This document shows, piece by piece, positions 9,601 to 49,410 of a stretch of 64,000 bases of DNA. The notes under the pieces are model-generated. The model searched no databases and was not told where the DNA came from. It saw only the letters and a program-made list of their open reading frames with translations. A program made the position numbers and the translations under genes. How positions within the stretch are numbered: the stretch's first letter is position 1; each line of letters begins with the position of its first letter. Source of the stretch: Naegleria gruberi (taxonomy: Eukaryota); NCBI GenBank assembly GCA_000004985.1, contig GG738878.1; one strand, written 5' to 3'.

Positions 9601-11038
9601 ATTATTTGAAGAAGGAAAGGCAATCCACAAACTTGCAACTGGCACCTTGAAAGATTACTCTGCTGAACTTTTAGCATCTATTGTCAACTTTTACACAAAA
9701 TGTGGACATCCAGAGGTTTCAATTGAGGAATGTGAACAATTGAAATCAAAGGGATTAATGAACAATGTTGCTATTTGGAATTGTTTAATTCAAGCACATA
9801 TTCAAAATACAACAAATACCCAAAACCCATCTACAATAGAATATGGACTGAACAAAGCAATGGTGGTTTTTAATGAGATGAAGGAACATATTGAACCCGA
9901 TAAGATAACCTACCTCATATTGTTGGCTGGATGTGGAGAATATGTTGCGAGAAAGATGGGACTGGATATTATTGATGAACTCAAACTAAAAGGAATGGAT
10001 GTTCATGAGGAGATAGTCAGTGTTATGATCTACTTTTATTCAAGAATTGCTTATCAATCAACTGCACAACAACTATTTGAAAAGCTTGTCGAAGAATCAG
10101 CCCAAAAACGTCTATCCATCATAACATATAATAACATGTTGTCATGTTACGCTCAACATGGAAAAGGAACACAAGCCATGAATTTATTTAATGAAATGGT
10201 TGATAAGAACGTTGAAATGAACGAGCAAACATTCACAATCATGCTGAACACATTTTCACATTGTGGAATGATTGATGAGGCGAATCAACTTTATGGAGAA
10301 ATGAAGACAAAATACAACCATAATCCATCAGTAATTGTAGACTGTGTAATGGTTGATGTCTTTGCCCGTTCAGGAAGATTTCATGAGGCAGAAAAAATAA
10401 TTAACGAAAGAATGAATTATTCTTTGTGGAGTGCTCTACTGGCAGGATGTAGAAAGTTCAATAATGTTGAGCTTGGTGAAAAGGTTTTTAAAATATTGCT
10501 TAGTATTGATGAAAAAAAAGCTCCACCATATATATTATTATCGAACATTTATACTTATTATGGGTTGAATGAAAAAGCTGACAATATAAGACAATTAATG
10601 ATTGAAAATGGAATTAAAAAGATACCAGGAATTGTGTATCAGGAAGAAGATGGTAAATCATACCAATTTGTTTCTGGATCAAAAAAATATGAAAGATTTA
10701 AGGAAATTGAGAAAATGAGAGAGGAGATTTACAGAAAAATAATCCAAGCTGGTTTTGAGCCAGATACTAGATGGGTAACTAACTCAAAATTATTAACTGA
10801 AGAAGAAAAATTAGATTCACTTTGTAGACATGCTGAGAAGACAGCAACAGCTCATGCATTTGTTTTGAATCCAAAGAGAAAATCAATTATTTTAGCGGCA
10901 AATCTTCGTGTTTGCAATGATTGTCATACTGCCACAGAATTCATTTCAAAAGTGATGGATGTTGAAATAATTATTAGAGATGCAAATAGATATCACCATT
11001 TTAAAGATGGTAAATGTAGTTGTGACGGATATTGGTAA
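6690..11038 (+). CDS. PLS-class pentatricopeptide repeat protein with C-terminal E/E+/DYW cytidine-deaminase-like domain (organellar C-to-U RNA editing factor type). The frame is interrupted at ~8200-8272; annotated as ORFs 6690..8216 and 8273..11038.
   Basis: There are at least 8 tandem ~104-aa units, each three PPR motifs (..WNCLIQAYIQNKEVRQAIEVITEMQDYGIEPNSTTFNILL..FYTKCGHPE..). The C-terminus has a PG-box/E motif (IPGIVYQEEDGKSYQFVSGSKKY) followed by DYW: HAEK..LRVCNDCHTATEFISK..IIIRDANRYHHFKDGKCSCDGYW. This gives the HxE...CxxCH zinc/deaminase signature and the terminal D-G-Y-W. At 8190-8230 an ~10-nt deletion relative to paralogous units (aaaagtattatggatggaattgtttaattcaagc versus aaaggattaatgaacaatattgtttggaattgtttaattcaagc) shifts the frame. 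Confidence 0.85.
7580..9790 (+). repeat. Intragenic tandem repeat, period ~312-315 bp (one PPR triplet per unit), >=7 copies, many >90% identical at nucleotide level
   Basis: The motif tggaattgtttaattcaagc recurs at about 8216, 8517, 8831, 9146, 9458 and 9777. The unit at 8273-8520 is almost identical to the unit at 9530-9780, an ~1.26-kb higher-order duplication. Confidence 0.85.
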
Positions 11039-27420: not shown

Positions 27421-30400
27421 TTGACTCGATGTGTGGTCTTTTTTAAAAACAAAATGAAAAACTGTTATTTTGGTGATATTGTGATTGTGTGTGTTGATGA
27501 AGATGGTGATGGTGATGATCATTATTCGGAGGCTGGATATGAATTATTACAAAACCACTTAGATAGTGTAGCATGGGAAAGAGTGGAGAGGAATGAAAAG
27601 ATTTATGATCATATGGAGAGTCTAATGAAACCCTATATTTGGTCAGGTTTGGAATATATTGAGAAAAATCCATTTCCAGACAATGATTGTAAATTGGTGT
27701 TTTATAGAGTGTTGAAGAAATTTGGAGAGTTATTGGAAATGGCTTCAGATGCTATCAAGTGTGATGAACGGTTGGTTCTTAAGGCTGTTAAAAGTAAACC
27801 TTCCTCTTTGCAATTTGCAAGTTTGGAATTGAGATCAAACAGAGAGTTTGCATTGAAAGTTGTTTCGTTTAAGACTCTTCATAGTGGTTCTCCATTTGAA
27901 TTTTTGGAGAATTTTCATGGTGATTATGAAATAGCATTGTTAGCTGCCAAACAATATGGAATGGCATTGGAGTTTGTTGCACCAAAGTTGAGAAATAACA
28001 GAGATATCATACGTGAAGCAGTGGAAAATAATGGATGTGCACTACAATTTGTCCCTGAACAATTAAAAGATAGAAGCTTAGTATGGAGTGCTTTAGATTC
28101 ATATTGCAAGTTTGAATTTGTACCAAAAGAAATGGAGAATGATAGAGAAATTTTACTTAAAGCTGCCTTACATTCAAATTTGAGCAGAATTCCAGACTTA
28201 TTTCACAGTGACAGAGAATTCGTTCTTGAACTTGTAAAGAGAGATGGATGTTTATTACAACATCTTCCAATAGAGTACCAACAGGATAGATTATTTGTAT
28301 TGGAAGCTGTAAAACGGAACCCTTTTTATTTAGCTGAGGCAAGTGATGAATTTAGAGGTGACAGGGAAATTGCTTTGATTGCTTTTCGGAAAAATCCGGA
28401 TGTATTTCAATATATTTCAAATAACTTGAAAAATGATAGAGATTTCATATCAAGCTTGATATTGAATGGATATGACCTGTATAGATTACAACGGTTTGGT
28501 GTTGCACTAGCCAACGATCGAGATTTCATTTTGAGTGCGATGGATAATTGGCTTGACTTTTCAAATTTTATGGATATGGAAAATACTTACAGGTCAGACC
28601 TGGAATTATGTAAAAAACTTATCAAACTATATCCTGATTGCATACGTTATACACTATGTGAAGAACTGAAACATAACAAAGAATTAGTAATGAGCTTATT
28701 ACCTCATAGTTTGGAAATACTTGAAGACATACCAGACGAGCTGAAGAATGACAGAGAATTTATTCAATACGCATTACGGTTGCATGACAAGTCATTACAG
28801 TATGCGTCGGACGAGCTGAAGAATGATAGAAGTTTGGTAATGGAAGCCATAAAATACGATAGCAATAACTTTATCTTTGCTTCTGACGAATTGAAAAATG
28901 ACAGACAAATTGTAGACTATATTATTCTTCAAAATGCATCTTTAATTGAATTTGCCTCCAAGTCCATTAGAAATGAAAGAGAAATTGTATTGAAAGCTAT
29001 CAAAAATTCATTTACTGATATTTCTCAATTTTTAGGTTATGAAATTATGGAAGAAAGAGAAATAGTCTTGGAGTGTGCTAAAAGGTTTGGAGGTTTGGAG
29101 CATCTTATAACCGAGTTTAGAAATGATAGAGAAATTGTTCGACATGTTATTCAAAATAATAAGGGTGAACAGCTTACTTATGCATCTGAACATTTACGCA
29201 AGGATCGAGAAATGGAGCTAATTGCAGTAAGGAATGGGCTGAGTTTGAAGTATGTCCATAACAAAATAGACAGGGAAATTGTATATGCTGCCGTAAATCA
29301 CTATGAAAGAAACGTTAAATATATACCAGATGAATTCATGAATGATGAGGAAATTATCTTACTATCTGCTAATTATCGTAATTGTTTAGATTACACTGGA
29401 GAACAATTGAAATCAAATAAGGAATTTATTAGAAAATTGATTTCAAAAAATGGTTGTTTATTATCAGATGTAGCAAGTGAGCTGAAGGATGATAAAGAAG
29501 TTGTGATGGATGCTGTGACTTCAAATGGCTTATCACTACAGTTTGCTTCACAATCAATGAAAGAGGATAAGGAAATTGTTTTGTCAGCTGTAAAATCCGA
29601 TGGACAAGCTCTGTCCCACGCCCCTGATCATTTTAAAAATGATAGAGAAATGATAATTTCTGCAGTTGATCATGGGTTTGCGGAATTTGATCATGATTAC
29701 ACTGCAGATAGAGAAATAGCACTAAAGGTAGTGAATAGGGATATTTTTTATTTCGAATACACAAAGGAACTGAGAATGGATAGAGATTTCATATTACAAA
29801 TAGAAAATCCAAATTTCTCCCTTTTATCAATTTCCCCTAAATTAAGAAATGATAGAGAAATAGCTTTTAAGGCGTTGGACATGGATGGGAATGCTTTATT
29901 GTACGTCTCTGACGAGTTGAAGAATGAATTTAAAAACGATCGAGAAGTATTGTTAAGAGCAATTGGAACTAATCAAATAGCATTTGTTTGTGCCTCAGTT
30001 GAGTTGCAAAATGATGAAAAGTTTGTATTAGATTCGGTCTCAGTGAATGGAATGGTATTGAGATATTTACCACTCAAATTCAAGGATAATAGACAAGTTA
30101 TTTTGAAAGCTGTTCAAAATAATGGTTGGGCACTCTTTTACGCACCATCAGAATTACTTCAGGATAGAGAAATAGTAATGAATGCCATAAAGAATACTGG
30201 TACTTCATTGGAATATGCTCCTTTCGAATTTAGAAACGATAAGGAAATTGTTTTAGAGGCAATTAAAACCAATGTGGAATCTTTACAATCGGCTTCATAT
30301 GAATTACGGAATGATGAGGAATTTATTTCACAAGCTATGGATATTGATATTGAATCTCTTCAATATGCCAATTATTCACTGAGATATAATATTGATTTTC

Positions 30401-30600
30401 TTACAAGAATGAATAAGGAAAATAGGATTATTCAAGGAGCATCAGAACAGTTACAAAAAGTTATTGACATGAATGGATTACTACAACAATTCAAGCAGGA
30501 GACAACTAGCAAAATCTACAACTTCAATCCCATTACTTTATGGACAATTTCAATTTTATTAGTGGCTTTATGTTGTGGAATCAAATTATATAATATTTGA
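27421..30600 (+). CDS. DUF4116-repeat protein (>20 tandem ~24-aa half-repeats) with C-terminal transmembrane tail anchor
   Basis: 1059-aa single ORF. The repeated motif is LKNDREIVLKAV..NG.ALQFAS.EL (for example DELKNDRSLVMEAIKYDSNNFIFASDELKNDRQIVDYII...). The last 22 aa (ITLWTISILLVALCCGIKLYNI) are hydrophobic. The likely true start is MKNCYF at 27454. Confidence 0.8.
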   Translation: MTRCVVFFKNKMKNCYFGDIVIVCVDEDGDGDDHYSEAGYELLQNHLDSVAWERVERNEKIYDHMESLMKPYIWSGLEYIEKNPFPDNDCKLVFYRVLKKFGELLEMASDAIKCDERLVLKAVKSKPSSLQFASLELRSNREFALKVVSFKTLHSGSPFEFLENFHGDYEIALLAAKQYGMALEFVAPKLRNNRDIIREAVENNGCALQFVPEQLKDRSLVWSALDSYCKFEFVPKEMENDREILLKAALHSNLSRIPDLFHSDREFVLELVKRDGCLLQHLPIEYQQDRLFVLEAVKRNPFYLAEASDEFRGDREIALIAFRKNPDVFQYISNNLKNDRDFISSLILNGYDLYRLQRFGVALANDRDFILSAMDNWLDFSNFMDMENTYRSDLELCKKLIKLYPDCIRYTLCEELKHNKELVMSLLPHSLEILEDIPDELKNDREFIQYALRLHDKSLQYASDELKNDRSLVMEAIKYDSNNFIFASDELKNDRQIVDYIILQNASLIEFASKSIRNEREIVLKAIKNSFTDISQFLGYEIMEEREIVLECAKRFGGLEHLITEFRNDREIVRHVIQNNKGEQLTYASEHLRKDREMELIAVRNGLSLKYVHNKIDREIVYAAVNHYERNVKYIPDEFMNDEEIILLSANYRNCLDYTGEQLKSNKEFIRKLISKNGCLLSDVASELKDDKEVVMDAVTSNGLSLQFASQSMKEDKEIVLSAVKSDGQALSHAPDHFKNDREMIISAVDHGFAEFDHDYTADREIALKVVNRDIFYFEYTKELRMDRDFILQIENPNFSLLSISPKLRNDREIAFKALDMDGNALLYVSDELKNEFKNDREVLLRAIGTNQIAFVCASVELQNDEKFVLDSVSVNGMVLRYLPLKFKDNRQVILKAVQNNGWALFYAPSELLQDREIVMNAIKNTGTSLEYAPFEFRNDKEIVLEAIKTNVESLQSASYELRNDEEFISQAMDIDIESLQYANYSLRYNIDFLTRMNKENRIIQGASEQLQKVIDMNGLLQQFKQETTSKIYNFNPITLWTISILLVALCCGIKLYNI

Positions 30601-32886: not shown

Positions 32887-34851
32887 TTATTCCAATGTAT
32901 CATTATTAGAAACCAATTGTCTTTGTACCAATTCCTTATATCTACTACCATTAATCATGAGTTGATCGTGTGTACCCTCCTCCACAACCATACCTCCATC
33001 AATTACATAGATGTTATTGGCATTCTTAATTGTAGAGAGACGATGAGCAATTACCAAAACAGTTCTTCCTTCCATTAATCTTTGAAGAGCTTCCTGAACT
33101 TGATGTTCAGCATTGGAATCAAGGGCAGAGGTGGCTTCGTCCAAAATAAGAATCCTTGCTTGTTTCAATATGGCTCTAGCAATGGCAATTCTCTGCTTTT
33201 GTCCACCACTCAATTTAATACCTCTTTCACCGACAGGTGTATCATAACCTTCCGAGAATCCCATAATAAACTCGTGAGCATTGGCCTTAGTTGCAGCATC
33301 AATAATTTCTTCATTGGTTGGAGGAGTGCTTGATTCCCAACCATAACAAATATTCTCTCTAATACTGCAAGAGAACAGAGATGGTTCCTGTTGCACAACA
33401 GCAATATTCTTTCTCAATTCTTTTGGACTGAGTTCTCTAATTGACTTTCCATCAACTAAAATATCACCCTCATTAGGATCATAGAAACGTTGTAATAATG
33501 AGCTAATGGTTGATTTACCATTTCCACTCTTTCCAACCAGAGCATTTACTGTGGAAGGTAACATTTCAATATTAACACCCTTCAAAACAGTTTGTTCAGG
33601 TCGAGATGGATAGGCAAATTGCACATTTCTAAACTCTACATGACCAGAAACTGGTTGATTAGATTCATCCATATCATAATCCATAGTTTGTGCTGATTTT
33701 CCTTGTCTCTTTTCAATTACTGGCACTTGTTTCAATAATTCGTGAACTCTTGCAGTAGCACCAACAGCCTTAACTAATTCGAATAGAACAGAAGAAACAA
33801 CTCCTAAACTAGTGGCCACATAGAATGTATAAATAATAAAGCTGGTCAATAATCCAATTGTAATTTCCTTTTTCAAAACCAATGAACCTCCATACCACAA
33901 AACCAGAATAATACTAGCTGTTGCACAGAAGGTCATTGTACCATTGAAAAATCCACTGCTCACTGAAAGTTTTCTTGCCAATTTCAAAGTGTCATCAATT
34001 GAAACATTGTACTGAGAAACGTGAGTATATTCCTTTGAAAAACTTCTTACAGTTCTCAAATTTGAAAATGATTCCTCAGCAACTTCACTAGATTTAGCCA
34101 ACGCATCTTGAACTTGTTTTGATAATCTCTTTACAATTTTACCATAAATAATTGCACCGAATATAATTGGTGGAATTACTGACATGGTTACCAAAGTTAA
34201 TTTCCAACTTGTGTAAAATAAAAAGAAAACTCCACCAATTGCCTGTAAAACATTTCTCATAAAAAGAAATAGATTTGATGTTACAGCAGCTTCAAGAGAC
34301 TTCGTATCAGAACTCAATCTATTAAGTAATTCACCTGTTTTAGTGGAATCGAAAAAGCTCACATCCTGAATAATCATTGTCTCAAATAATTCCTTTCTCA
34401 ATCCAGCCACAACTCTCTCACCTGCAAATGAAAAGCAAAAGTGTTTAATTGCTGTTGTAATGGCAATTCCAAAAACTGCCAATAACAAGTAAAGAGCTGC
34501 AGTGTTCAAATATTTTTCTCCCTTCTCATCGCCATCTTCAGATGTCAATGCTTGTGGAATGACATCAACAAGGTTTGTCAAGAATAATGGTAAAACAAGT
34601 CCTAAAACTGTACTGATCAACATGGCAACCGTTCCTACCAATAGCAAATGCCATTGAGTGAATCCTAAACCGAGTAACCATTTTAATTGTGAAAGTGAAG
34701 ATCCTCGGAAGAAATTACTAATAAATTTAAGTGGTGATCTTGATGTTGGAATTGTTGGTGATGAAGAGTTATCTTTTTCATGGAGGTTGATATTTTCATT
34801 TGTTCCTTCATTGTTATTATCATCGTCTTCGGAGAGGTGTTGTGGAGGCAT
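32887..34851 (-). CDS. ABC transporter, subfamily B half transporter (TMD-NBD; mitochondrial ABCB10/ATM1/TAP-like)
   Basis: 654-aa single ORF. A six-helix TMD follows an ~70-aa N-terminal extension. The NBD carries Walker A (GKSGNGKST), the signature LSGGQKQRIAIARAIL, Walker B (ILILDEATSALD) and the H-loop (VIAHRLST). Confidence 0.85.
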   Translation of the reverse strand: MPPQHLSEDDDNNNEGTNENINLHEKDNSSSPTIPTSRSPLKFISNFFRGSSLSQLKWLLGLGFTQWHLLLVGTVAMLISTVLGLVLPLFLTNLVDVIPQALTSEDGDEKGEKYLNTAALYLLLAVFGIAITTAIKHFCFSFAGERVVAGLRKELFETMIIQDVSFFDSTKTGELLNRLSSDTKSLEAAVTSNLFLFMRNVLQAIGGVFFLFYTSWKLTLVTMSVIPPIIFGAIIYGKIVKRLSKQVQDALAKSSEVAEESFSNLRTVRSFSKEYTHVSQYNVSIDDTLKLARKLSVSSGFFNGTMTFCATASIILVLWYGGSLVLKKEITIGLLTSFIIYTFYVATSLGVVSSVLFELVKAVGATARVHELLKQVPVIEKRQGKSAQTMDYDMDESNQPVSGHVEFRNVQFAYPSRPEQTVLKGVNIEMLPSTVNALVGKSGNGKSTISSLLQRFYDPNEGDILVDGKSIRELSPKELRKNIAVVQQEPSLFSCSIRENICYGWESSTPPTNEEIIDAATKANAHEFIMGFSEGYDTPVGERGIKLSGGQKQRIAIARAILKQARILILDEATSALDSNAEHQVQEALQRLMEGRTVLVIAHRLSTIKNANNIYVIDGGMVVEEGTHDQLMINGSRYKELVQRQLVSNNDTLE

Positions 34852-37613: not shown

Positions 37614-40283
37614 ATGCTTCTCTCTACTTCCAACCCTACACCATCATCACAAGTGACGGTGAAAAAGAGTGGTGAAAATATGTTGTTCAACAATTCAACC
37701 TTCACCAACAACAGCAGCAATACCCCAAACTCTTCAGAAGAGCAAAAAAGTAGTACTAGCCATGTGATTTCATCCTCTTTATCACCTCTTGCACTCCAAC
37801 CAATAACTACAACACCCAACCATCAATCAAAGCCTATGTCTATGGAGGTTTTGTCATCTTCTTATCCACAACAACATGAATCAAAGCCTTCTTCCGATAG
37901 TATCATACCACCACCAAGAATGCAACCTCCAACAACAACAAACTTTCCCATCATTACAAGCTCTAACCCATCTATTCGTTCCACAACAACAGGTCATCCA
38001 ACTTTTCACAGTTCTTTCCCTATTATGACCAATAACTTTTTGGCTCCTCCTCTCTTCTCTTCTTCAAAAATTCATTCTACTAGTTCCGTTCCAACTATTA
38101 CCACCTTACAAAGCTCTTCTGTGAGTCCAAATTCACTAATTTCCTCTATCAATAATACACCAACAAAATCTAGTTTGGATAATGTACCAAAGCCTGTACC
38201 AACTGCTTCCTCAATTCTTGCACCATCACTTTCTCTCATTGAAACAGAGTCTATTTCACCTCAACCTATTAGAGTTTCAACAATTTTGTCCAGTTTTAAT
38301 ACCCCATCCGATTCAAGTAAATCAGCAATAGGTAATAGTAACAATAGTTCAAACTCTCAAACAGAGTCTGTTTCCACAACTACTACTCCAAAGATTACAC
38401 GTGTAAGGAAACTCACACCAAGAAGAGTTCCTGACCTTCCTCTGCAGCAGGAGCAACAAGCTGGTACAACAAAACAAGCAAGTGAGCCAACAACACCAAC
38501 CAAGGAACAACCTACAAGAACAGAAGCTGAATCAAACCCTTTCACTACACTTTATTCTAAACCTCTTTCCTCCTTTCCACTTCATCATCCTTCTTCCTCA
38601 ATGAGTGGCAGCAGTTTTTCACCATTTCCTCCTCCAACATCACATTCCAGATTAGTGAGTCCTTCAACGCCATCACCAATAAGCCTTTGGCCAAGCACTA
38701 CTGTTACAACTAGCACTTCGGCAACACCTAATAAGCATATAGTCCCTCCTCCACTATTACCACCTCTTAATGTTTCTCCTCCCAACACAAAGAAGAGAAG
38801 AACCAATAGCCAAGAAAGCGTAGGAGCCAGTCTTCAGCCATTAACACCATTAACACCACCAACACCATCAGCTCAATTTCCATTCCCTTCAGTTAGATTG
38901 TCAAGTGCTACACCACCACCAGGATATGTTCCTCCTCCTCCTTTCCCTATTTCATCAGCTTCACTTATTCCAGTAGTAAAATCAAATGTGATTGGACCTC
39001 CTGAAAGAAAGGTTTCTAGCAATACTCCACCGCCAGAGGCAAAACCAAAGAAAAAGGAAAATATGGTTGGTTGTAACAGTATCAGAATACCATTCAGATC
39101 TTGGATGAAGACTCTTGATACTCTATCAGCACCAAGCCTTAGAGCTGTACAGGAACGAGTCACCCAATTGTTGGAAAAGAAGGAAGAAGAAAAGAAGAAG
39201 AATCTACTAGCAAAGCAACAGAAACAAGAAACATCCTCTTCTTCAAATCGAACAACCAAATTGAGTTGTAGTAACGATACTTTGTCATTACTCTCTACAG
39301 ACTTATCTAGTATTGATACGCTTGCTATTCTTGCATTGGCTGATTCACCTCCTTCTCCTACTTTGGCTAAATCTAGTGAACTGATATCTGAATCTGTTGA
39401 ACTATTCTCTAAAAGTCCAGATAAATCAATGATGATTGAATCTGATGATTCTGAGGAGGAATCTGAGGAAGAAATTGATATTAATCTCAAGATTGCTCAA
39501 GCTGAACCTTTTGTTAGAGAATATTCTGGTAATGGATTTATCTATCCTGGTAGAAGGGGAGCCAAGTCACAACGAGTGAGACTACCAATTTGTTTCTACC
39601 CAAGCATGAAAAGTGTTTTAGCCTCAGAAAGCAGCGCTGAAACATTTGTTGAAGGTGAAGATTCTATCAATCCTGTCATTGATTTGGAGCATCATTTGGA
39701 ATTTTTCATTGACGATTCTGACAGAAAGTTGTATAACTCTATTAGGGGATTGCATCTCGTGCTGCTCAAGAGGATCAGTAAGACTGTCTATATTGAGGAG
39801 AGTAGTGTACTCGTTCAAAGAAGTTCTAGATCAGATGATGGTGGATATAACTTTTCCATTATCAATCAAACAAGTCTCCACCCTCCTTTACCAGGACAAA
39901 GACAAGCCGACTATTCTCTTCTCCTTGTTGAACCAAGAGGTAAACGTAGGAATGCTCAAGATGTCGATAAGGTCAATAGATATTGTGAAATTATTCATGA
40001 ACAAGGCAATCAATGCAAGATTCGTGTTGGATTTAGAATTTGTAAAGCTCAAAAGAAAAAGCATACTAAAGGTGTTTACTTGTTGAGACTAGTAGCTTGT
40101 ATATCCGATGAAGCAGAGATTAAATTTGATTCCTCAAATCAACCAATTAATGGTGTTATGAAAGTATTGGAAGAAAGTGAACTATTCAAGATTGTATCTC
40201 GAAGAGTTACTGCTAACAGTAAGCCAACAGCAAGTCTCAAACGGAAGATGGATGATGATGAAGTAGATTCATCTTCTGAATAA
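37614..40283 (+). CDS. large S/T/P-rich hypothetical protein with ~250-aa structured C-terminal domain of unknown family
   Basis: 889-aa single ORF. The first ~480 aa are mucin-like S/T/P low complexity. The C-terminus (..FIYPGRRGAKSQRVRLPICFYPS..LEHHLEFFIDDSDRKLYNSIRGLHLVLLKRISKTVYIEESSVLV..CKIRVGFRICKAQKKKHTKGVYLLRLVACISDEAEIKF..) looks globular and was not recognised. Confidence 0.5.
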   Translation: MLLSTSNPTPSSQVTVKKSGENMLFNNSTFTNNSSNTPNSSEEQKSSTSHVISSSLSPLALQPITTTPNHQSKPMSMEVLSSSYPQQHESKPSSDSIIPPPRMQPPTTTNFPIITSSNPSIRSTTTGHPTFHSSFPIMTNNFLAPPLFSSSKIHSTSSVPTITTLQSSSVSPNSLISSINNTPTKSSLDNVPKPVPTASSILAPSLSLIETESISPQPIRVSTILSSFNTPSDSSKSAIGNSNNSSNSQTESVSTTTTPKITRVRKLTPRRVPDLPLQQEQQAGTTKQASEPTTPTKEQPTRTEAESNPFTTLYSKPLSSFPLHHPSSSMSGSSFSPFPPPTSHSRLVSPSTPSPISLWPSTTVTTSTSATPNKHIVPPPLLPPLNVSPPNTKKRRTNSQESVGASLQPLTPLTPPTPSAQFPFPSVRLSSATPPPGYVPPPPFPISSASLIPVVKSNVIGPPERKVSSNTPPPEAKPKKKENMVGCNSIRIPFRSWMKTLDTLSAPSLRAVQERVTQLLEKKEEEKKKNLLAKQQKQETSSSSNRTTKLSCSNDTLSLLSTDLSSIDTLAILALADSPPSPTLAKSSELISESVELFSKSPDKSMMIESDDSEEESEEEIDINLKIAQAEPFVREYSGNGFIYPGRRGAKSQRVRLPICFYPSMKSVLASESSAETFVEGEDSINPVIDLEHHLEFFIDDSDRKLYNSIRGLHLVLLKRISKTVYIEESSVLVQRSSRSDDGGYNFSIINQTSLHPPLPGQRQADYSLLLVEPRGKRRNAQDVDKVNRYCEIIHEQGNQCKIRVGFRICKAQKKKHTKGVYLLRLVACISDEAEIKFDSSNQPINGVMKVLEESELFKIVSRRVTANSKPTASLKRKMDDDEVDSSSE

Positions 40284-40961: not shown

Positions 40962-42767
40962 ATGCTTTCTCTAGATTCACCCAAACATCAGCAACAACAC
41001 CATGATGATATCTATCTGCAGGATTTCAACAATGATGGCGAACATTATTCGAATAATAGAAATCATCATCAACAACAATTTTATTACAATTCACCTCCCA
41101 TTACAACAACAAATATTCTCAACGAGTCGACAAGTAGTGTTGCCTCTAATTTAATAACATCATCACCCGATCACAATAATTTAAATGATGGAATAAGTGG
41201 CAGATTTTCCAACAAATCAAATTCCTCCTCTCAACAAGCTTTATTTTCCTCATCACCCCAAAACAATAAGAATAGAAAAAACAATTCAAAACAACAATCA
41301 ACGAAAGAATTTAAGGATCGTTTACTAAATTTAAAAGCAGCAGAATCCAAAGATCAACCCAGTGAAATTTATAGGAATCTCACAAAGCGAGAGAGGTTTA
41401 ATATAACGTGTTGTGGAGTGGTTGTGGCAGGTGTGGTGGTGATTGTCTTGACAATACTGACTGTATTTGTAGTTTATTATTTGGAGGTGTATCGGATTGA
41501 TTCGAATAGGAGGATGGGTTATGAGAAAGTGGAACTTGCTGAGAGAAATATTGGTAAACAACTTACAAAAACATTTAATTCATTGTTGGTAATGAGGGAT
41601 CAAGCGCAGAATTGGAATTATTCAATTAGTTTGGAAAAGTTTAATGGACTTTCGGCTAGATTAGCTTGGGGACATCATGAAGTTTACAATTTCGAATATG
41701 CAATTGGAGAAAATGCATCACTGGATTATGTCTATCCTCCAGTGGATGCTGTTTATGGATTACAAATGGGAGCTGACTCATCAACTCACAAATCAGCCAT
41801 GAATGAAGCCATCCAAAAAAACGAAACTACAATTTTTGGACCTATTTCACTAATTGAGGGTGGAGTAGCTGTCATTGCTCAACATCCAATATTTTATTTG
41901 AATGGAAGTTTTTTTGGATTTGCTGTCGAGCTCTGTAGAGTTGACCAATTATTCAATTCGATTAATTTTACAGGACTTTTACAAGGTTATCAATATCAAT
42001 TATTTGATTATTATAGAAATTCTGTGTTTTTACAAAGTTTGGATGGACATTCAGAGTTTGAACCAACGATTGAAAGAAATGTTTCAATCATTTCTGATAG
42101 TATTTATGCGAATATTTCAGTTTATAATTGTAGATGGAAGATTATTCTTCGACCTGTCAATGGATGGGACTCTAATTCAATTTTGTGGCTTGAGATATTG
42201 ATTGCCTTACTGATTATTTTTTTACCGTCCATAACTATTGGTGTTTTGGCATCAGTTGTTGTTAATTCATGTAATTGGTTAGGTAATCATGGAAAGGTGG
42301 CGGATGTTTTGGATAAAGTCAGAAATCAACACGTAAAAAAAGAGCAGAAAAAGGCCATGCTTAAGGAGGATTGGGAAGCATGTTGTGAGTGTTTTAATGA
42401 GAGAACTGACAAGATTCAAAGAATTGTTAATCATTTACCAATGGCTGCAATTTCAGCCTCTCTGGATGGAAAAATTTATTCTGTGAATGCGGCCTTGACG
42501 AAATATTTTGGCTATGATTCGAATAGAATCCTAGAAATTAAGCTCAATGATATGTTTGTGGATTTTAATATTAAGGAAATATATAATAATCGAAAGGGAA
42601 AAGGCCATTTCACACACTCGGCAACAATCATGTCAACAAATCAAGAAGCACACCAAGTAATAATTAATATTTTATTTAGCGAGAATTCTAAGGAAGTATC
42701 AGTTCTGATTTTCATTCCTTGCTTGGACAAGGGGGAAAAAAGTACAAGTTTGGAAACAGTTGATTAA
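40962..42767 (+). CDS. sensor-like membrane protein: TM1 - ~230-aa extracytoplasmic CHASE-like ligand-binding domain - TM2 - cytoplasmic PAS-like domain; no catalytic output domain
   Basis: 601 aa. TM1 is ITCCGVVVAGVVVIVLTILTVFVVYYL. The extracellular segment is ..WGHHEVYNFEYAIGENASLDYVYPPVDAVYGLQMGADSS..TIFGPISLIEGGVAVIAQHPIFYLNGSFFGFAVELCRVDQLF... TM2 is ILWLEILIALLIIFLPSITIGVLASVVV. The PAS-like segment is ..RIVNHLPMAAISASLDGKIYSVNAALTKYFGYDSNRILEIKLNDMFVD... The CHASE assignment rests on this architecture and is not a verified match. Confidence 0.55.
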   Translation: MLSLDSPKHQQQHHDDIYLQDFNNDGEHYSNNRNHHQQQFYYNSPPITTTNILNESTSSVASNLITSSPDHNNLNDGISGRFSNKSNSSSQQALFSSSPQNNKNRKNNSKQQSTKEFKDRLLNLKAAESKDQPSEIYRNLTKRERFNITCCGVVVAGVVVIVLTILTVFVVYYLEVYRIDSNRRMGYEKVELAERNIGKQLTKTFNSLLVMRDQAQNWNYSISLEKFNGLSARLAWGHHEVYNFEYAIGENASLDYVYPPVDAVYGLQMGADSSTHKSAMNEAIQKNETTIFGPISLIEGGVAVIAQHPIFYLNGSFFGFAVELCRVDQLFNSINFTGLLQGYQYQLFDYYRNSVFLQSLDGHSEFEPTIERNVSIISDSIYANISVYNCRWKIILRPVNGWDSNSILWLEILIALLIIFLPSITIGVLASVVVNSCNWLGNHGKVADVLDKVRNQHVKKEQKKAMLKEDWEACCECFNERTDKIQRIVNHLPMAAISASLDGKIYSVNAALTKYFGYDSNRILEIKLNDMFVDFNIKEIYNNRKGKGHFTHSATIMSTNQEAHQVIINILFSENSKEVSVLIFIPCLDKGEKSTSLETVD

Positions 42768-42784
42768 TTCAATTACAAACTTAT

Positions 42785-45700
42785 TTACCACCAATCAGAA
42801 CCAACATTGGAAACTTCTTCAGAGACTGAATTAAAGTTCTTTGTGACTGCCTTGCTTGCTGATGCAAATAAACCTTCGTTGAGTTCATTTTCCAAATCAC
42901 GATGGAAACGATCAGTGATTGGTCTTGTAACAAATTTGAGGTGGAAGGAATAAGTATCCTTTGGCATAACTTTGACCTTTTCTTGTGCCTCCTTTTGGAG
43001 AGTTGCAACTGGGTCAGGTAATAATGAGAACAAAATCTTTTCAAAATTCAAACAGAATTTTTCAAAAGCTTGCTTATTCTCTTTCGTCTTGGAGAACAAC
43101 ATTCCTTTCCACTTGAGTTCCTTTCTGTATTTAGTAATGACCAAGTAGAGAGTTTCAGCAATAACTTTGCAGTGTGGATGACTCTTATATTCGTTAATGT
43201 TTGTTTCAAAGTCCTTCAAGATGACGGATGTATATCTTCCAATTTCATTCTTATAGCTAATTTCCAAGAGCATGTAATAATTAAGGGACCAAATGATAGG
43301 ATGGACATAGTTAACAACAGCACCTCTTTCTTCAGTAAAGAGTGCAGTCTTTAACCATTCAGTTGGTTGTTTCAAAAGTTTCAACTTTCTTTCGAGTGGA
43401 AGTGAAAATATGATAGTATTGAACAATCTACCAAAGTTTGAGCTTACCAAAAATTGGTTGGAAGTCAAATTGTTTTGTGAATCGATAACCAAAAAGTTTT
43501 GAGAATTACCACCTGTTGAAGGGATAAAGAATAAGGAATCGCAAACTGTTGTTGGTAATTCCTTATATTTGGCAGTGCCTAAGGTTGTTTTAGAGAGAGC
43601 TCCACTCTTTTGAGGATTGAACTTGAGGGCATGTGAAGTGTATACTCTGCTTGGGGCCTTTTTCAAGAGTGTTTTTTGAATGTAATCAGTACACTTTCTA
43701 GCCAAGTTACTTTCACCTGGGGTTGAGAGTAAGAACATTTCTTTTAGTTCGGTTTGAGGAATGACATGACCCTTGCATGGCACAAAAAGTCTAGTCTTGA
43801 ACTTTTCAGCATCTACATTACCAATGAAAATTACACCACCTTCTGTTGGCTTTGTATTCTCCTCTTTCCAAGTTGGTCCTCTCAATAATTGTAACAAATC
43901 AGCAGAATCCATATATTGATCATCTCCTTGATTGAACATTGGATGAACAATGAGTTTACCTTCAAATCCACCATTTACCCATGTGATAGGATGTCTATCC
44001 TTTGTTCCTCTCACATAGGATATTCCACCATATCGCTCAATATCCCAAATGTTAACACTAAGTCCCAATCCTTCAAATATCTTGATGTAACATAAAAACT
44101 CAGGTCTTTGAATTTGCTTATCAGTAAAGAATAATACATCGAATGGATTTTGACCTGGTACAGTAGGGAAATAATTTGGAGTCAAACGGATCATACTTTC
44201 AAGGTTTTCAATTTTCTTTCCTCTAAGATGAAGACTAACTTTGAATGGAATAATTTCAAAGAATTGTGCAATATCATTAATTTCAACTTGGAAACTTCTA
44301 GAGTAGGTCATACCAGCTTGAATAAAAGGTATATCTTCTTCAATTCCATTTACTCCATTCAAACCAGGCTCATTATGAACAATAAATCTAGGATCAAATA
44401 CAATATTAAGTTTCAAGTGTTGTCTCTCGCCGACAGTAGAACCATAATTCATCATGGAAATATTCTTAAATGTAACAGTAACAGTGCCTCTCTCTGTTCT
44501 TCCCAACTGTGGTGGAGCAAAAATAGCCTCAAATTGAATTGGGTATTGAATAATGTAGTCATTCTTAAGGAAGGCACCTGGGAATGGTGATGTAAGAAGG
44601 GTTGCAGATGATTGGACTGGGAGAATTGACTTGTAAGGTCCAACACCCATAGGTTCTGGTGTATCAGAGATGGTACCAAAGAATTGGAATGGTATTGTGA
44701 AAATTCCTCCAGGAAGAATAGCTTGATCCAAAACATAAAAAGTATCTGCAGAGAGGAAAGATTGTTGACCTTGAGTACTAGGGAAGGAAATTACTGTTCC
44801 TACTGGCAAAATCATACCACCTTGGTTGGATAAAGTGACAGCAGATACAAATACAGTTTCACCAGGTTCAAAAACTCCATCATCTTCAGTTGCAAAGAGT
44901 TGGAAAGAAGTAACAAACAAATCAAATACAGATGTACCCTGATCCAAAATGTTATTAGTTATTGGATCATAGACACGGAAGAGTAAACTTCCAGGCATGC
45001 CATCTTGACCGTCTTGACCTCCCATACCCCTAAAATTTTTTGAAATTGAATAATGTTTGTTAATAGTTGATACTTACTGTCTTCCTGATTGACCATTTTG
45101 ACCTGATTGACCACTTCTACCATCTGAACCTCTTTCTCCAGAGCTAAGACTTTCACTATCAACAGGTTGCCCTGCAGAACCACCACTACCACCACTGCCT
45201 CCACTGCCACCACTACCGCCATGACCACCACTACCACCACATCCTGGATCACCTCCGTAACCTCTTCTACCAGCCCTACATTCAGCTTGAACAAATTTTA
45301 AAAGGGCTGGATTATGTGTTTCAATAACTACACTTCCACCACTTCCTCCATTTCCTCCACTATTGGATTTAAAATTAATTGAGTCTATAAGAAACTTACT
45401 TGGCTCCATTTCCACCACTAATAATTGTTGAATAAATTATATGCAACTTTCCAATACTTACTCTGCACCATCTCCACCACTATTAAAATAATAAAATTTA
45501 ATTGAACTAGCTCACAAATACTTACTTTCCACCACTATTTTCAAAAAATTAATATTCCAAAAATGAAAACATTTCCAAAACTTACTTTCCACCACTAAAT
45601 GCATTTCATTAGTAAACTTTGATTTCTAAATACTTACTCTCCACCACTAGATACATTTAAATTCACAACTAATTCTAGTAATACTTACTCTCCACCATCC

Positions 45701-46430
45701 CCTCCATTACAACCTTTATTACCAGATTTACCACTACCTCCACTACCACCGCTTCCACCACTTCCACCATTGCCACCACTTCCTCCACTACCACCATGAC
45801 CACCACTAAATTTTGAATGAATTATTATCATGCATGAATAGATTACCAGTACTTACTCGCCACCATCTCCTCCATTTGCCAAAAAGACCAAAACCTTTCC
45901 AGCTCCATCATCCAAACACAATGTTTCATTAGCAGTACCACTCACAACAATGGACTTGTGGTTAACTCCTTCAATTGTCACTTTAATATTACCAGCGCTC
46001 TGTGCACTAGTTCCACTTGTACCACTTCATGAAATAATGATCAATAAAAAGGGTGTCCCAATTACTGCTACTACTTACTGCTCACCATGTGTTGCTCTTC
46101 CTCCGCTGGAATATATTAGTATTTCAAACAAATCATTGCTACTTACTGACTACCATTGGTACCATTACCACCTCTCTGACCACTAGAACCCCAAGAACCA
46201 GAATTTCCACTCTATTTCATCATGATGATAAAAAAACAATGATATCCTATGGATGATACTTACACTTCCCCAACTTCCTGAATGCCCACTATTAATAATA
46301 AGAAAAATAATGATCATCATCAAATAGTATAAACATTTTCATGTTATCCAATAAAAACCCACCTAAAACCCGAAACACCCGAAATTCCAGGTTTCCCAGA
46401 AACGTCTACTATAATTGAATTTTTGAGCAT
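42785..46430 (-). CDS. collagen-like (Gly-X-Y) repeat protein with large C-terminal globular domain; 13 exons: 46363..46430, 46264..46288, 46147..46211, 46079..46105, 45857..46024, 45689..45805, 45638..45646, 45586..45594, 45526..45534, 45462..45479, 45400..45417, 45078..45360, 42785..45029
   Basis: Every junction has a GTAAGT donor (the first is GTGGGT) and an (A/T)AG acceptor. Only one reading phase stays open through all exons (phase 2 at the micro-exons). The reconstructed N-terminus is MLKNSIIVDVS-GKP-GIS-GVS-GFS-GHS-GSW-GSS-GNS-GSW-GSS-GQR-GGN-GTN-GSH-GGR... followed by ..NIKVTIEGVNHKSIVVSGTANETLCLDDGAGKVLVFLANGGDGG. Then come DGGHGGSGGSGGNGGSGGSGGSGGSGKSGNKGCNGGDGGE, the micro-exons DGG / DGG / NGG / NGGDGA / DGGNGA, then NGGNGGSGGSVVIETHNPALLKFVQAECRAGRRGYGGDPGCGGSGG..GSDGRSGQSGQNGQSGRQ|GMGGQDGQDGMPG, then a 735-aa non-repetitive domain. 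Confidence 0.65.
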
Positions 46431-46829
46431 TTTTTTTTGCTTTTTAAAAAATTGGATTTTCAACGATGAAACCCCGCCAATTTCCTTCTTTAGAACCGTA
46501 ATTCACAGGAACAAAGTAGGAACATTTACAGCCATTTGTTATCCTTTGCGAATATTTCAATTGTGTTGTGTGTAACACTTGCAAATGTGAGGACGTTGAA
46601 GTTCGCTTGGTTGTGGCAATAGATATATCTCCATGTTGGCCAGATTGTTATTTTTCAATTTCAAAATTGAATTATTGCTTAACTGTTCGCCTTACTTTGG
46701 GCTTGAATAAGGATTTACTGGTCATTAAAGCAAAGGAAAACTTAATTTCTCATCATCTGTTGTGGTTTTGAGTCTATTTCATCTTTGATTGTAAATTCCA
46801 TTAAAAAATAAAAATCAGAATTAAAAAAA

Positions 46830-48485
46830 ATGGATGCATTGTGTTTGGAATTGATCTTTTCCTACTGTTTACCTCATAGTATATTTTCGGTGTGTAGTTT
46901 GGTGTGTAGAGAGTGGTCCGAGTTGATCCGATCAAGAGATTTCTTCAAAAGATATTCGAAAATGAAAATGCGATCTGTGGTGGGACCTTTTAATTGGATT
47001 GAAATGATGAGTTGTGTCGATTATGAATTTTATGAATTAATTTCATCCTTTTTATATTCGGTCAAGTCTGAAAATTGTCGAATTTTACCAAATCACATTC
47101 AAATAATGGTTCCATCGAGTGATCACGATCGGAAATATTTAATTTTCTATGATCGGGAAGAGAAACTCTATAGAATATTGAAAGATGAGAAAGATGAAAT
47201 GATTCCCTATCATGAAGAGGATGATGGAATGGGTAAAATTAAAGAGCTTGTGAAGAGTGCAAAGGTAGTTTCGGCTAAAATTAATTCAGAAACTTTCTAT
47301 TCGGTTGATCTTATGCATACCCATACGGAGTGTCAGCAAGAAGGCTTGGAATGGTTGTTGCAACAGCAAACAAAATATTTCGACCATATTCCTACGGAAT
47401 TCTTTTTCAGTATTTTGGATTTTCACACAAATCCATCAAGTTTTAGGTTTGACAGATTTTGTATAGGAGGGGAGTTGTTAAATGCGTTGAAACATGAAAA
47501 AATTCTGCCTGAATCCCATAATACTCAATTCAAGCATTTCAATGTAACAAAAATTGGAACCAAAGCTTCAAATTTGTGGAATTATCCTTACGAAGGAGCA
47601 CTGGAGAGATTGTTCAATAGAGGTAAATTGAGTAATGAGTTGGGAATTGATTTGATTCATAGAGGATTTGAAATTTCAATGCGTACATTGATTTCAAAAG
47701 ATTCTCAATTGGCTCTTGATCTAACAGTTGAATATTGTAAAGTGAATCAAATTGATTTGTTGAGGAAGATTGCCATGAAAGATCATGTTCATATTACAAA
47801 CGCTGTGGAAATGTTTTACTATTTCACATGTTGCGTTTTTCAAATTCCTATCTGGCTCTATTCTCCTTCTAATAGATGGATTGATTATATCAAAAATTTG
47901 GATTCTAATATTCATTTTCCATTTGCTTCAAAATGTGAAACTCTATCAGAAGAATTACAAATGCCAAGAGTCTGCCTCCTTGCTAAGAAATCCCTTCAAG
48001 ATTCCTCTTATGGAAGAATTCAATTGGACAGACTATCTTACATTACGAAGAATTATGTAAAATCTGTGAATATTCAATATATCGAAGAAGATTTAGTGCA
48101 ATACGATAAACTCAATGAGGAATTTTCACACTATGACTGTATCATATATTGCGTGGAGAGATTAGATACCAGTACTAATAACAAAGAAGAGAAAGGAATT
48201 GATTTTAATGTGTTGAAACATTTGGCTGAAAGTGGAAAGAGAATTTGCTTTATGTTTAAAATAGAGAATTTGAAAAACTTCCCAAAATCACCAATTCCAT
48301 TACTGAAACATGTCAAATGTGGTCTATTTGAGTTTTCTGAACGAAACATTCACACTCTCATTACAGGACGAGATATAGACATTAAGGAAACTAAATATAA
48401 GGGTGTTGATCCTTGTCCACCTCCACCAACTCAAAACAATGATGATGATGAAGAAGAAGAATATTATTCTAGCATCTTTTATTAA
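46830..48485 (+). CDS. F-box protein, otherwise uncharacterised, acidic C-terminus
   Basis: 551-aa single ORF. The N-terminal F-box is MDALCLELIFSYCLPHSIFSVCSLVCREWSELIRSRDFFKRY. The C-terminus is ..NNDDDEEEEYYSSIFY. Confidence 0.55.
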   Translation: MDALCLELIFSYCLPHSIFSVCSLVCREWSELIRSRDFFKRYSKMKMRSVVGPFNWIEMMSCVDYEFYELISSFLYSVKSENCRILPNHIQIMVPSSDHDRKYLIFYDREEKLYRILKDEKDEMIPYHEEDDGMGKIKELVKSAKVVSAKINSETFYSVDLMHTHTECQQEGLEWLLQQQTKYFDHIPTEFFFSILDFHTNPSSFRFDRFCIGGELLNALKHEKILPESHNTQFKHFNVTKIGTKASNLWNYPYEGALERLFNRGKLSNELGIDLIHRGFEISMRTLISKDSQLALDLTVEYCKVNQIDLLRKIAMKDHVHITNAVEMFYYFTCCVFQIPIWLYSPSNRWIDYIKNLDSNIHFPFASKCETLSEELQMPRVCLLAKKSLQDSSYGRIQLDRLSYITKNYVKSVNIQYIEEDLVQYDKLNEEFSHYDCIIYCVERLDTSTNNKEEKGIDFNVLKHLAESGKRICFMFKIENLKNFPKSPIPLLKHVKCGLFEFSERNIHTLITGRDIDIKETKYKGVDPCPPPPTQNNDDDEEEEYYSSIFY

Positions 48486-48507
48486 TAGATATTAATGTGA
48501 AACAATA

Positions 48508-49410
48508 TTATTGTTGATTGATTGTTTTGAATAATCTTGGTTTGATATCTTGGAAGAGATTACTATTGGAGCTTTCAACTCTTCTTCCTGAAATAATTGT
48601 CCATCTTAATTGCTCCAAAAGAATTGGAAATAATTCACTTGGAGAATTTAACTTTTCGGCAATTCTTTCTTGGATGGATTTAATCCAATCAGCTGCTGTT
48701 TGATCTTGTTTGAATTCAATATTTTCACCATGAATGAAATGAGCAATTTCCTTAACTGTCAAAGTGTCAGAAGCAACATTAATATCACCAACAATATCCT
48801 TTCTGATAGCAGCTTTAGCTACAAACTTTCCAATATCTTCTAAAAAGCTAACATCAACCTTTTCACTCAAATCACCATTGTAATGAACTGTCTTGGTTTC
48901 TGTGTCAAACTTGTTGAATAATAAGAAGGAAGCCATATGAGCAAAGATTCCAACATTCACTTGAGTCCATTCTAAACCACTTTGTTTGATAGTTTCAGTA
49001 ATTTTGAACTTGGCATCATTTAACATACTTTCCTCAGGTTTGAAAAGATTTAAATTCAAACCATAGGTTGTTGGAAGGTACTTTTTTACACCTGCCTTCT
49101 TGGAAGCTTCAATGAGTTTCAATTGACCTTGAAGCAATAGCTCAGGATTAGCTGCAAGAGCAGTGATGACTACCTCTTTACCAGACAATGCATTTACGAG
49201 CTCCTCTTCACTTGTTGAGAGAATATCCCCAACAATTACATTAGCTCCCTTTTCTTTCAAAGAGGCAACCTTTTCCTCATTTCTAACATGCAAGGTCAAC
49301 TTGACTTGTGGGTAATGTTCTAAGATTGCTTTGGCAATTTCGAGACCACAATTTCCACCAGCTCCAATAACAATTACAGAAGTGTATTGATTTTGTTGAG
49401 TAGAAGACAT
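48508..49410 (-). CDS. NmrA-like / isoflavone-reductase-like NAD(P)-binding oxidoreductase (atypical SDR)
   Basis: 300 aa. The Rossmann motif is VIVIGAGGNCGLEIAKAIL, and the family layout HVRNEEK..LKEKGANVIVGDI.. is present. Confidence 0.7.
   Translation of the reverse strand: MSSTQQNQYTSVIVIGAGGNCGLEIAKAILEHYPQVKLTLHVRNEEKVASLKEKGANVIVGDILSTSEEELVNALSGKEVVITALAANPELLLQGQLKLIEASKKAGVKKYLPTTYGLNLNLFKPEESMLNDAKFKITETIKQSGLEWTQVNVGIFAHMASFLLFNKFDTETKTVHYNGDLSEKVDVSFLEDIGKFVAKAAIRKDIVGDINVASDTLTVKEIAHFIHGENIEFKQDQTAADWIKSIQERIAEKLNSPSELFPILLEQLRWTIISGRRVESSNSNLFQDIKPRLFKTINQQ

Follow-up and report, generated by a model that had tools for sequence, protein, structure and literature searches.

Consecutive 9- and 18-nucleotide micro-exons that most likely encode part of a fixed-length glycine module in a DUF7932-family gene of Naegleria gruberi

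A 64,000-nucleotide stretch of the Naegleria gruberi genome (contig GG738878.1 of assembly GCA_000004985.1; referred to below as the window) carries, on its minus strand at 42785..46430, a DUF7932-family gene with 13 exons and 12 introns that encodes a protein of 1019 amino acids (aa). Five consecutive units within this gene, each only 9 or 18 nucleotides (nt) long, are in all likelihood real coding exons, and most likely ones that are always included. They had been picked out in an earlier reading of the letters alone (the original prediction), which proposed a 13-exon protist gene with genuine micro-exons; both the gene model and the comparison with related genomes bear this out. The DUF7932 family has no known function, and neither the array nor the family is described in any of the papers searched: literature searches on DUF7932, on Naegleria micro-exons and on Naegleria collagen returned nothing relevant.

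The micro-exon array, together with its six short introns, spans 45360..45688 and can be read directly from the minus strand. It consists of three 9-nt exons, namely exon 7 (TGGTGGAGA, 45646..45638), exon 8 (TGGTGGAAA, 45594..45586) and exon 9 (TGGTGGAAA again, 45534..45526), followed by two 18-nt exons, exon 10 (TGGTGGAGATGGTGCAGA, 45479..45462) and exon 11 (TGGTGGAAATGGAGCCAA, 45417..45400). All five units are preceded by (T/A)AG and followed by GTAAGT, and in the sole open frame they read DGG, DGG, NGG, NGGDGA and DGGNGA, so that a 9-nt exon corresponds to one Gly-Gly-(Asp/Asn) triplet and an 18-nt exon to two; the original prediction had these units, their flanking signals and their translation right. 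The predicted spliced order from exon 6 to exon 12 is ...GGTGGAGA|TGGTGGAGA|TGGTGGAAA|TGGTGGAAA|TGGTGGAGATGGTGCAGA|TGGTGGAAATGGAGCCAA|TGGAGGAAAT... The window contains three copies of a 17-nt motif, AGTGGTGGARAGTAAGT, whereas 100 shuffles give an expectation of 0.00. The same motif was also sought metagenome-wide, where 84 contigs have one match each; these were treated as chance matches, as none encodes a DUF7932 homologue or has a second micro-exon nearby.

The introns of the array are 42, 43, 51, 46, 44 and 40 nt long, 266 nt altogether. All introns in the repeat are in phase 2, interrupting a codon between its second and third bases (GA|T, AA|T or CA|T); their donors are perfect GTAAGT sites, and their acceptors end in AG and are followed by TGG. 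Because every intron splits an Asp/Asn codon after the second base, any pairing of donor and acceptor keeps both the frame and the triplet register, and retention of any array intron leads to an immediate in-frame stop (xxG TAA). A scan of the window for GT[AG]AGT donors with open frames on both sides gave 12 other credible introns, all with GTAAGT donors and 40-115 nt in length (8 of the 12 at 40-56 nt). Since these introns have the same donors and similar lengths, the introns of the array are ordinary Naegleria introns. Tandem Repeats Finder detects no 50-60-nt periodic array across 45380-45660, which argues against a minisatellite, and the periodicity that it does report is that of the 9-nt coding repeats within the longer exons only. 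No RNA family was found in the window with Rfam.

The evidence that the micro-exons are coding comes mainly from a comparison of four loci: the N. gruberi gene, two relatives from metagenomes and one gene from Naegleria lovaniensis. The closest relative, on the Joint Genome Institute (JGI) metagenome contig L001 (protein P0001, 55% aa identity), can be modelled with 14 exons and 1030 aa, and includes micro-exons of 18, 9, 9, 18 and 18 nt; downstream of it lies the same conserved neighbour, in convergent orientation, as in the window. The second relative, L089 (P0241, 53% identity), has micro-exons of 9, 9, 9, 9, 18 and 18 nt. In N. lovaniensis, the deposited protein C9374_002317 (P0242) fits the genome only by way of 17 exons, including five of 9 nt and one each of 18, 27 and 5 nt. 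The annotation of that genome, which was made using BRAKER1 with RNA-seq (PMC6125883), silently includes the same micro-exon structure. As a separate observation, the 5-nt exon in N. lovaniensis (TGGAG, L088 4412-4416), which threading requires and which is followed by a phase-1 intron, would be smaller still than the 9-nt exons, but it could instead be an annotation compromise.

The positions of the introns are shared to a large extent. The micro-exons fall in a Gly-Gly-X linker, and when phase-2 introns are counted from the first linker residue, they lie at 8, 47, 50, 53, 56, 62 and 68 in N. gruberi; at 14, 23, 44, 50, 53, 56, 62 and 68 in L001; at 14, 44, 47, 50, 53, 56, 62 and 68 in L089; and at 11, 14, 23, 44, 47, 50, 53, 56 and 62 in N. 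lovaniensis, which has in addition a phase-1 intron at 64. Positions 50, 53, 56 and 62 are thus introns in all four genomes, and 44, 47 and 68 in three of the four each. In terms of N. gruberi exons, the two boundaries of exon 8 (50/53), of exon 9 (53/56) and of exon 10 (56/62) are found in every genome, exon 7 (47/50) has both of its boundaries in common with L089 and N. lovaniensis, and the far boundary of exon 11 (62/68) is in common with L001 and L089.

Sequence conservation follows the exons. Orthologous micro-exons of N. gruberi and L001 are 78-89% identical, and the interiors of the introns between them are similar only at the level of shuffled sequence in four of five pairs, the fifth pair being weakly alike. 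The length of the linker is also informative. With all micro-exons included it is 77 residues in N. gruberi, L001 and L089 and 71 in N. lovaniensis, and the median for the family is 75 (61 sequences, 59 of them from databases), with typical values of 70-78. Without the micro-exons the N. gruberi linker would be 56 residues long. The five array exons encode 21 residues (region aa 157-178), which form the second half of the linker between two conserved beta segments, and the glycines that they encode (G161-G174) are at least 90% conserved in an alignment of 60 sequences. Taken together, the related arrays, shared positions, exon-only conservation, linker length and conserved glycines rule out a minisatellite and make dead pseudo-exons very unlikely.

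Several points weigh on the other side. The gene has no independent annotation in N. gruberi: the collection of 5.8 billion protein clusters that was searched contains no N. gruberi protein for it, the best match being the 55%-identical metagenome protein, although the ABC transporter encoded nearby in the window does occur there at 100% identity. The N. lovaniensis exon map was obtained by threading the deposited protein rather than from deposited coding-sequence coordinates, BRAKER1 gene models are themselves predictions, and the conserved neighbour is missing downstream of the N. lovaniensis gene, which may be a paralogue. Inclusion of each micro-exon in the N. gruberi mRNA is inferred from the comparison, and the Pfam Collagen model passes its threshold at the N-terminus of the protein (see below). 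Exact look-ups of the model protein, of the open reading frame (ORF) of the last exon and of three neighbouring proteins returned nothing on record. It may be that the reference annotation omits the gene or models it wrongly, possibly owing to its micro-exons.

The gene model was built by reading the minus strand of 44800-48600 directly, listing every GTAAGT in it, and joining and translating the exons. The spliced model has an open frame of 3060 nt with no stop, and the other two frames are interrupted by stops, which agrees with the single open phase originally proposed across the gene. Exon 1 (46363..46430, 68 nt) opens with an ATG at 46430, in the context aaaaaaATG that is common to N. gruberi, L001 and N. 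lovaniensis, and contains the beginning of a Gly-X-Y run. Exon 2 (46264..46288) is a further micro-exon of 25 nt, the orthologues of which measure 25 nt in L001 and 28 nt in N. lovaniensis. In the translated model it is followed by exon 3 (46147..46211, 65 nt), the start of which is fixed at 46211 by the frame (acceptor aaatag|AG), and by exon 4 (46079..46105), a 27-nt micro-exon of three triplets. Exon 5 (45857..46024, 168 nt) covers the first beta segment (KVTIEGVNHKSIVVSG...VLVFLA) and runs into the beginning of the Gly-Gly-X linker, and exon 6 (45689..45805, 117 nt) contributes 13 triplets to the first half of the linker. Downstream of the array, exon 12 (45078..45359, 282 nt) completes the linker and goes on to the second beta segment (VVIETHNPALLKFVQAEC) and a third Gly-Gly-X and Gly-X-Y segment. 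Exon 13 (42785..45029) is 2245 nt long with its stop and covers the final Gly-X-Y triplets, the DUF7932 domain and the carboxy-terminal domains. The exceptional feature of the gene is that its 12 introns are packed into the first 1.4 kb.

The assignment to the DUF7932 family is based on the stop-free translation, a Pfam match and a broad set of homologues. Positions 2-130 of the 130 in the Pfam profile (PF25560) match aa 309-434 at E = 3.7e-14, with a score of 53.7 bits where the cutoff is 27. The matched residues correspond to 44543..44920 on the minus strand, and the domain is predicted to be an Ig-like beta-sandwich, in line with the fold matches of a homologue model. At E <= 1e-5, the protein collection contains 171 homologues, nearly all with PF25560, from organisms that include sponges, a nemertean, bdelloid rotifers, Percolomonas, Tetrahymena, Bdellovibrionota and Myxococcota; many are bacterial. 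In all the homologues the same elements follow one another: first a run of Gly-X-Y, next a beta segment that closes with A-x-G-G, then the Gly-Gly-X linker (about 75 aa), a V-x-I...P-x-L-L segment, further glycine repeats, beta-rich (beta-sandwich) domains and, last, a helical carboxy terminus. The N. gruberi protein is collinear with this family over its full length, and the 60-sequence alignment has 20 invariant columns and many glycine columns that are nearly so. The family differs from the N. gruberi gene in its introns. The three loci examined outside Naegleria are intronless, whereas the genes of the Naegleria clade have 12-16 introns, concentrated in the glycine repeats.

How such short exons would be spliced can be proposed from the lengths of the introns. 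Introns of 40-51 nt would be recognized as units, across the intron and not across the exon, and those of the array would probably be removed one after another, since the two splice-site complexes would hardly fit together on an exon of 9 nt. The original prediction had placed 9-nt exons near the lower limit of exon recognition, which is too strict, as exons of 1-6 nt have been documented (PMC4674806). The constant length of the 77-residue linker argues that full inclusion would give the functional product.

A different outcome of the same splicing signals is that the micro-exons are cassette exons, combinatorial skipping of which yields in-frame isoforms that vary in the number of Gly-Gly-X triplets and thereby tunes the length of the glycine module. 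The sequence would permit this, as all six introns are in phase 2 with nearly identical donors and acceptors, and any skip stays in frame and recreates a GAT, AAT or CAT codon followed by GG at the junction; symmetric micro-exons are used in this manner in the micro-exon genes (MEGs) of Schistosoma (PMC8293314). We nevertheless consider it unlikely, because three species with different partitions into exons all have a linker of exactly 77 residues, which matches the family norm only with full inclusion, and because the encoded glycines are nearly invariant in the family. Ordered modules of fixed length would, in addition, be expected to tolerate the deletion of triplets poorly. It is highly improbable that the units are pseudo-exons or relics that lie in one 329-nt intron (45360..45688) and are never included. 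A direct junction between exons 6 and 12 (GA|T GGA) would keep the frame, but exons and splice sites are conserved in four genomes while the intron interiors are randomized, the resulting 56-residue linker falls well under the 70-78 of the family, and 329 nt far exceeds the 40-115 nt of the other introns in the window. A 9-nt core with splice-like flanks that repeats every 52-62 nt could also come from an assembly artefact, or from a non-coding minisatellite, that only looks like exons. However, no such array is detected by Tandem Repeats Finder, the spacers are mutually unrelated, and the same architecture is present in independent assemblies from three other sources, so that the comparative data effectively refute this account.

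A separate question is whether the glycine repeats form a collagen. The original prediction had described a collagen-like gene, and this description holds for part of the protein. Glycine occupies every third residue in uninterrupted runs of 15, 25, 12 and 12 triplets, although the first run had been overcounted: instead of 18 unbroken amino-terminal Gly-X-Y triplets there are 15 (aa 12-56), an Ala break and then three more. The whole protein just passes the cutoff of the Pfam Collagen model (PF01391; 29.7 bits against 27.2), a marginal match. Of the two stretches of this match, the best-scoring one covers aa 12-69 and does not reach the micro-exon region. The first 300 aa contain 6 Pro and 103 Gly, the linker is of the form Gly-Gly-(D/N/S/H), and the X and Y positions are not rich in the proline (or charged) residues that stabilize a triple helix. 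Searches of NCBIfam gave only sub-threshold matches to streptococcal collagen-like proteins, and a profile search of the PDB gave only periodic, low-complexity matches to collagens. Few homologues have a precomputed match to PF01391. Because the proline content is low and the best Pfam Collagen stretch misses the micro-exon region, the statement that the protein is a collagen fails, and it is better described as a DUF7932 member with a proline-poor Gly-Gly-X linker.

A model of a homologue points to another fold for the linker. P0002, a 34%-identical homologue encoded by a single uninterrupted ORF, was modelled as a monomer using AlphaFold2 with the 60-sequence alignment. The model has a mean pLDDT (predicted local distance difference test) score of 82.8. 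Values of 93-96 are reached in the glycine segments, among them residues 261-290, the counterpart of the micro-exon region, and DSSP assigns no alpha or beta structure to these segments; beta-sandwich fold matches were also found for the model. The linker would accordingly be a compact, ordered, glycine-rich module of packed polyproline-II helices, in which 9 nt encode one helical turn, and it probably fits a glycine-rich polyproline-II bundle better than an extended collagen rod. Known bundles of this type (snow flea antifreeze protein, the amino-terminal domain of Obg and the glycine-rich region of ALK) resemble the linker in several respects: two-thirds of the residues are Gly; with the three residues per turn of such left-handed helices, one 9-nt exon would equal one turn; the module is of fixed length and lies between beta segments; and AlphaFold2 predicts it confidently without alpha or beta structure (bioRxiv 10.1101/2023.11.25.568672). 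Pfam, PDB-profile and fold searches gave no sequence or fold match to the snow flea antifreeze protein or to the Obg or ALK glycine-rich domains. What we infer from the resemblance is how the segment may fold, and no membership is claimed.

The opposite view, that three chains assemble into a genuine collagen triple helix through the Gly-Gly-X linker and the flanking Gly-X-Y runs, and that this is a protist collagen that mirrors the exon organization of collagen genes, draws on the unbroken glycine runs, on the Pfam Collagen score over aa 12-69 and on the PDB profile matches to collagens in the Gly-X-Y parts. We think it improbable. Proline is scarce, and glycine makes up two-thirds of the linker; the sole PDB local alignment printed across the Gly-Gly-X linker scored negatively, the significant stretches being on the Gly-X-Y segments; and most homologues lack a precomputed Pfam Collagen match. 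Moreover, the linker is fixed in length within the family and broken by beta segments, AlphaFold2 places it confidently in a monomer (in the homologue model), no hydrophobic amino-terminal signal sequence is apparent by eye, and the introns are in phase 2 rather than phase 0.

The organization of the exons invites comparison with two known gene systems. In the fibrillar-collagen genes of animals, exons descend from a 54-bp (base pair) unit, open on an intact Gly codon and have lengths that are multiples of 9. The repeat exons of the N. gruberi gene (27, 117, 9, 9, 9, 18 and 18 nt) are likewise multiples of 9 and encode whole triplets. However, its introns are in phase 2 and split the third-position codon instead of leaving the Gly codon intact in phase 0, its units are of 9 or 18 nt with no 54-nt exons, and its repeat, of the form Gly-Gly-X, contains little proline. 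The protein has a periodic composition in common with animal collagens but no homology to them beyond that, and the exon pattern arose independently. An independent origin of the 9n organization had been raised as a possibility in the original prediction, and the phase-2 split of Asp/Asn codons and the intronless relatives elsewhere support it. The second system is the MEGs of Schistosoma, in which consecutive, very short (<=36 nt), phase-symmetric exons can be removed without breaking the frame (PMC8293314). The N. gruberi array has a similar run of short symmetric exons, namely five consecutive phase 2-2 exons of 9-18 nt, to which the 27-nt exon 4 (2-2) can be added; the 25-nt exon 2 is short but asymmetric. 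MEGs are, however, mostly coding in micro-exons, and their products are secreted, variable, restricted to schistosomes and alternatively spliced. In N. gruberi, by contrast, the five array micro-exons account for 63 of 3060 coding nt (115 with the 25- and 27-nt exons added) and encode a conserved repeat of fixed length, and the comparative data favor constitutive inclusion.

The distribution of introns across the family suggests how the array arose. Homologues in the sponge Oopsacas, in the rotifer Adineta ricciae and on the metagenome contig L002 are single, intronless ORFs. Because these homologues have no introns, and bacteria account for many members of the family, the simplest explanation of the 12-16 introns in Naegleria-clade genes is lineage-specific gain, concentrated in the repeat. 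The array would be old within the clade: introns would have entered the coding repeat of a gene that has none in other lineages, and later change would have consisted mainly of single-intron losses and of sequence exchange between adjacent exon-intron units. The differences among the four genomes do look like single-intron losses: N. gruberi lacks linker introns 14, 23 and 44 and has a fused 117-nt exon, and L001 lacks intron 47 and has an 18-nt exon in place of two 9-nt exons. Introns 8 and 9 of the L001 gene, which follow its two 9-nt exons, are clearly related (z = 9.7). As both positions are ancestral, this similarity suggests sequence exchange between neighboring exon-intron units. A recent tandem duplication was considered as the origin of the N. 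gruberi array and rejected, since its introns are mutually dissimilar (best z about 4 in 66 pairs) and their positions are ancestral; a duplication, if there was any, is old.

We tentatively propose, as one possible history, that an intron was gained at a GA|TGGTGG site in the Naegleria lineage and spread to equivalent Gly-Gly-X sites by recombination or gene conversion, leaving the length of the protein unchanged. The outcome would be up to six consecutive exons of one or two triplets. The idea that exchange of units spreads introns through a repeat at constant length is speculative. Two non-adjacent introns of the L001 gene, intron 1 (940-976) and intron 3 (1101-1141), also have in common a motif of about 20 nt (ATCATTGTGTTGAC...; z = 11.4), and GTTGAY occurs in several other introns of that gene. 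These motifs may represent a branch-site consensus or a sign of related intron origins.

The remainder of the window, which has a GC content of about 33%, contains several other genes. The convergent downstream neighbor (40962-42767, plus strand) is retained in L001 (4486-6675, minus strand) with 38.5% identity over 374 aa; the L001 copy has a weak match to the CHASE domain, and the N. gruberi ORF has no Pfam match at E <= 1e-5. A minus-strand ORF at 32887-34851 agrees with the NCBI entry named 'abc transporter [Naegleria gruberi]' at every one of 654 aa (100% identity), which identifies the source of the DNA as N. gruberi. An ORF of 1059 aa at 27421-30600 (plus strand) consists of 15 DUF4116 repeats (661 bits), and a DUF4116 gene is also found near the intronless DUF7932 homologue on contig L002 (252-1178). 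Two adjacent pentatricopeptide-repeat (PPR) genes are present on the plus strand at 8273-11038 and 6690-8216, the second of which has E-motif and DYW deaminase domains. The PPR-DYW combination is a plant-type RNA-editing architecture that is rare outside land plants. Finally, an intronless ORF of 889 aa at 37614-40283 (plus strand) is extremely rich in Ser, Thr and Pro and of low complexity, and the GC skew is strongly negative over 36-40 kb of the window.

It is very rare for three to five 9-nt exons to follow one another directly, and the chain described here is conserved among genomes whose proteins are only 37-55% identical. This conservation shows that a protist spliceosome working with introns of 40-50 nt handles chains of 9-nt exons reliably, and the array provides a clean test case for the minimum size of an exon under intron-defined splicing. 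The contrast with intronless homologues also makes it an unusually legible instance of introns being gained, and later lost, within a coding repeat in a particular lineage, because the introns have one shared phase and sequence context, the length of the protein is constant, and two adjacent introns in one relative are still similar. If the proposed spread of introns is true, the gene would offer a natural system for studying both repeat-mediated intron gain and the action of an intron-defining spliceosome on chains of 9-nt exons. Micro-exon genes of this type are easily missed in annotation. The array also draws attention to DUF7932 itself, a widespread and uncharacterized family with a glycine module of fixed length.

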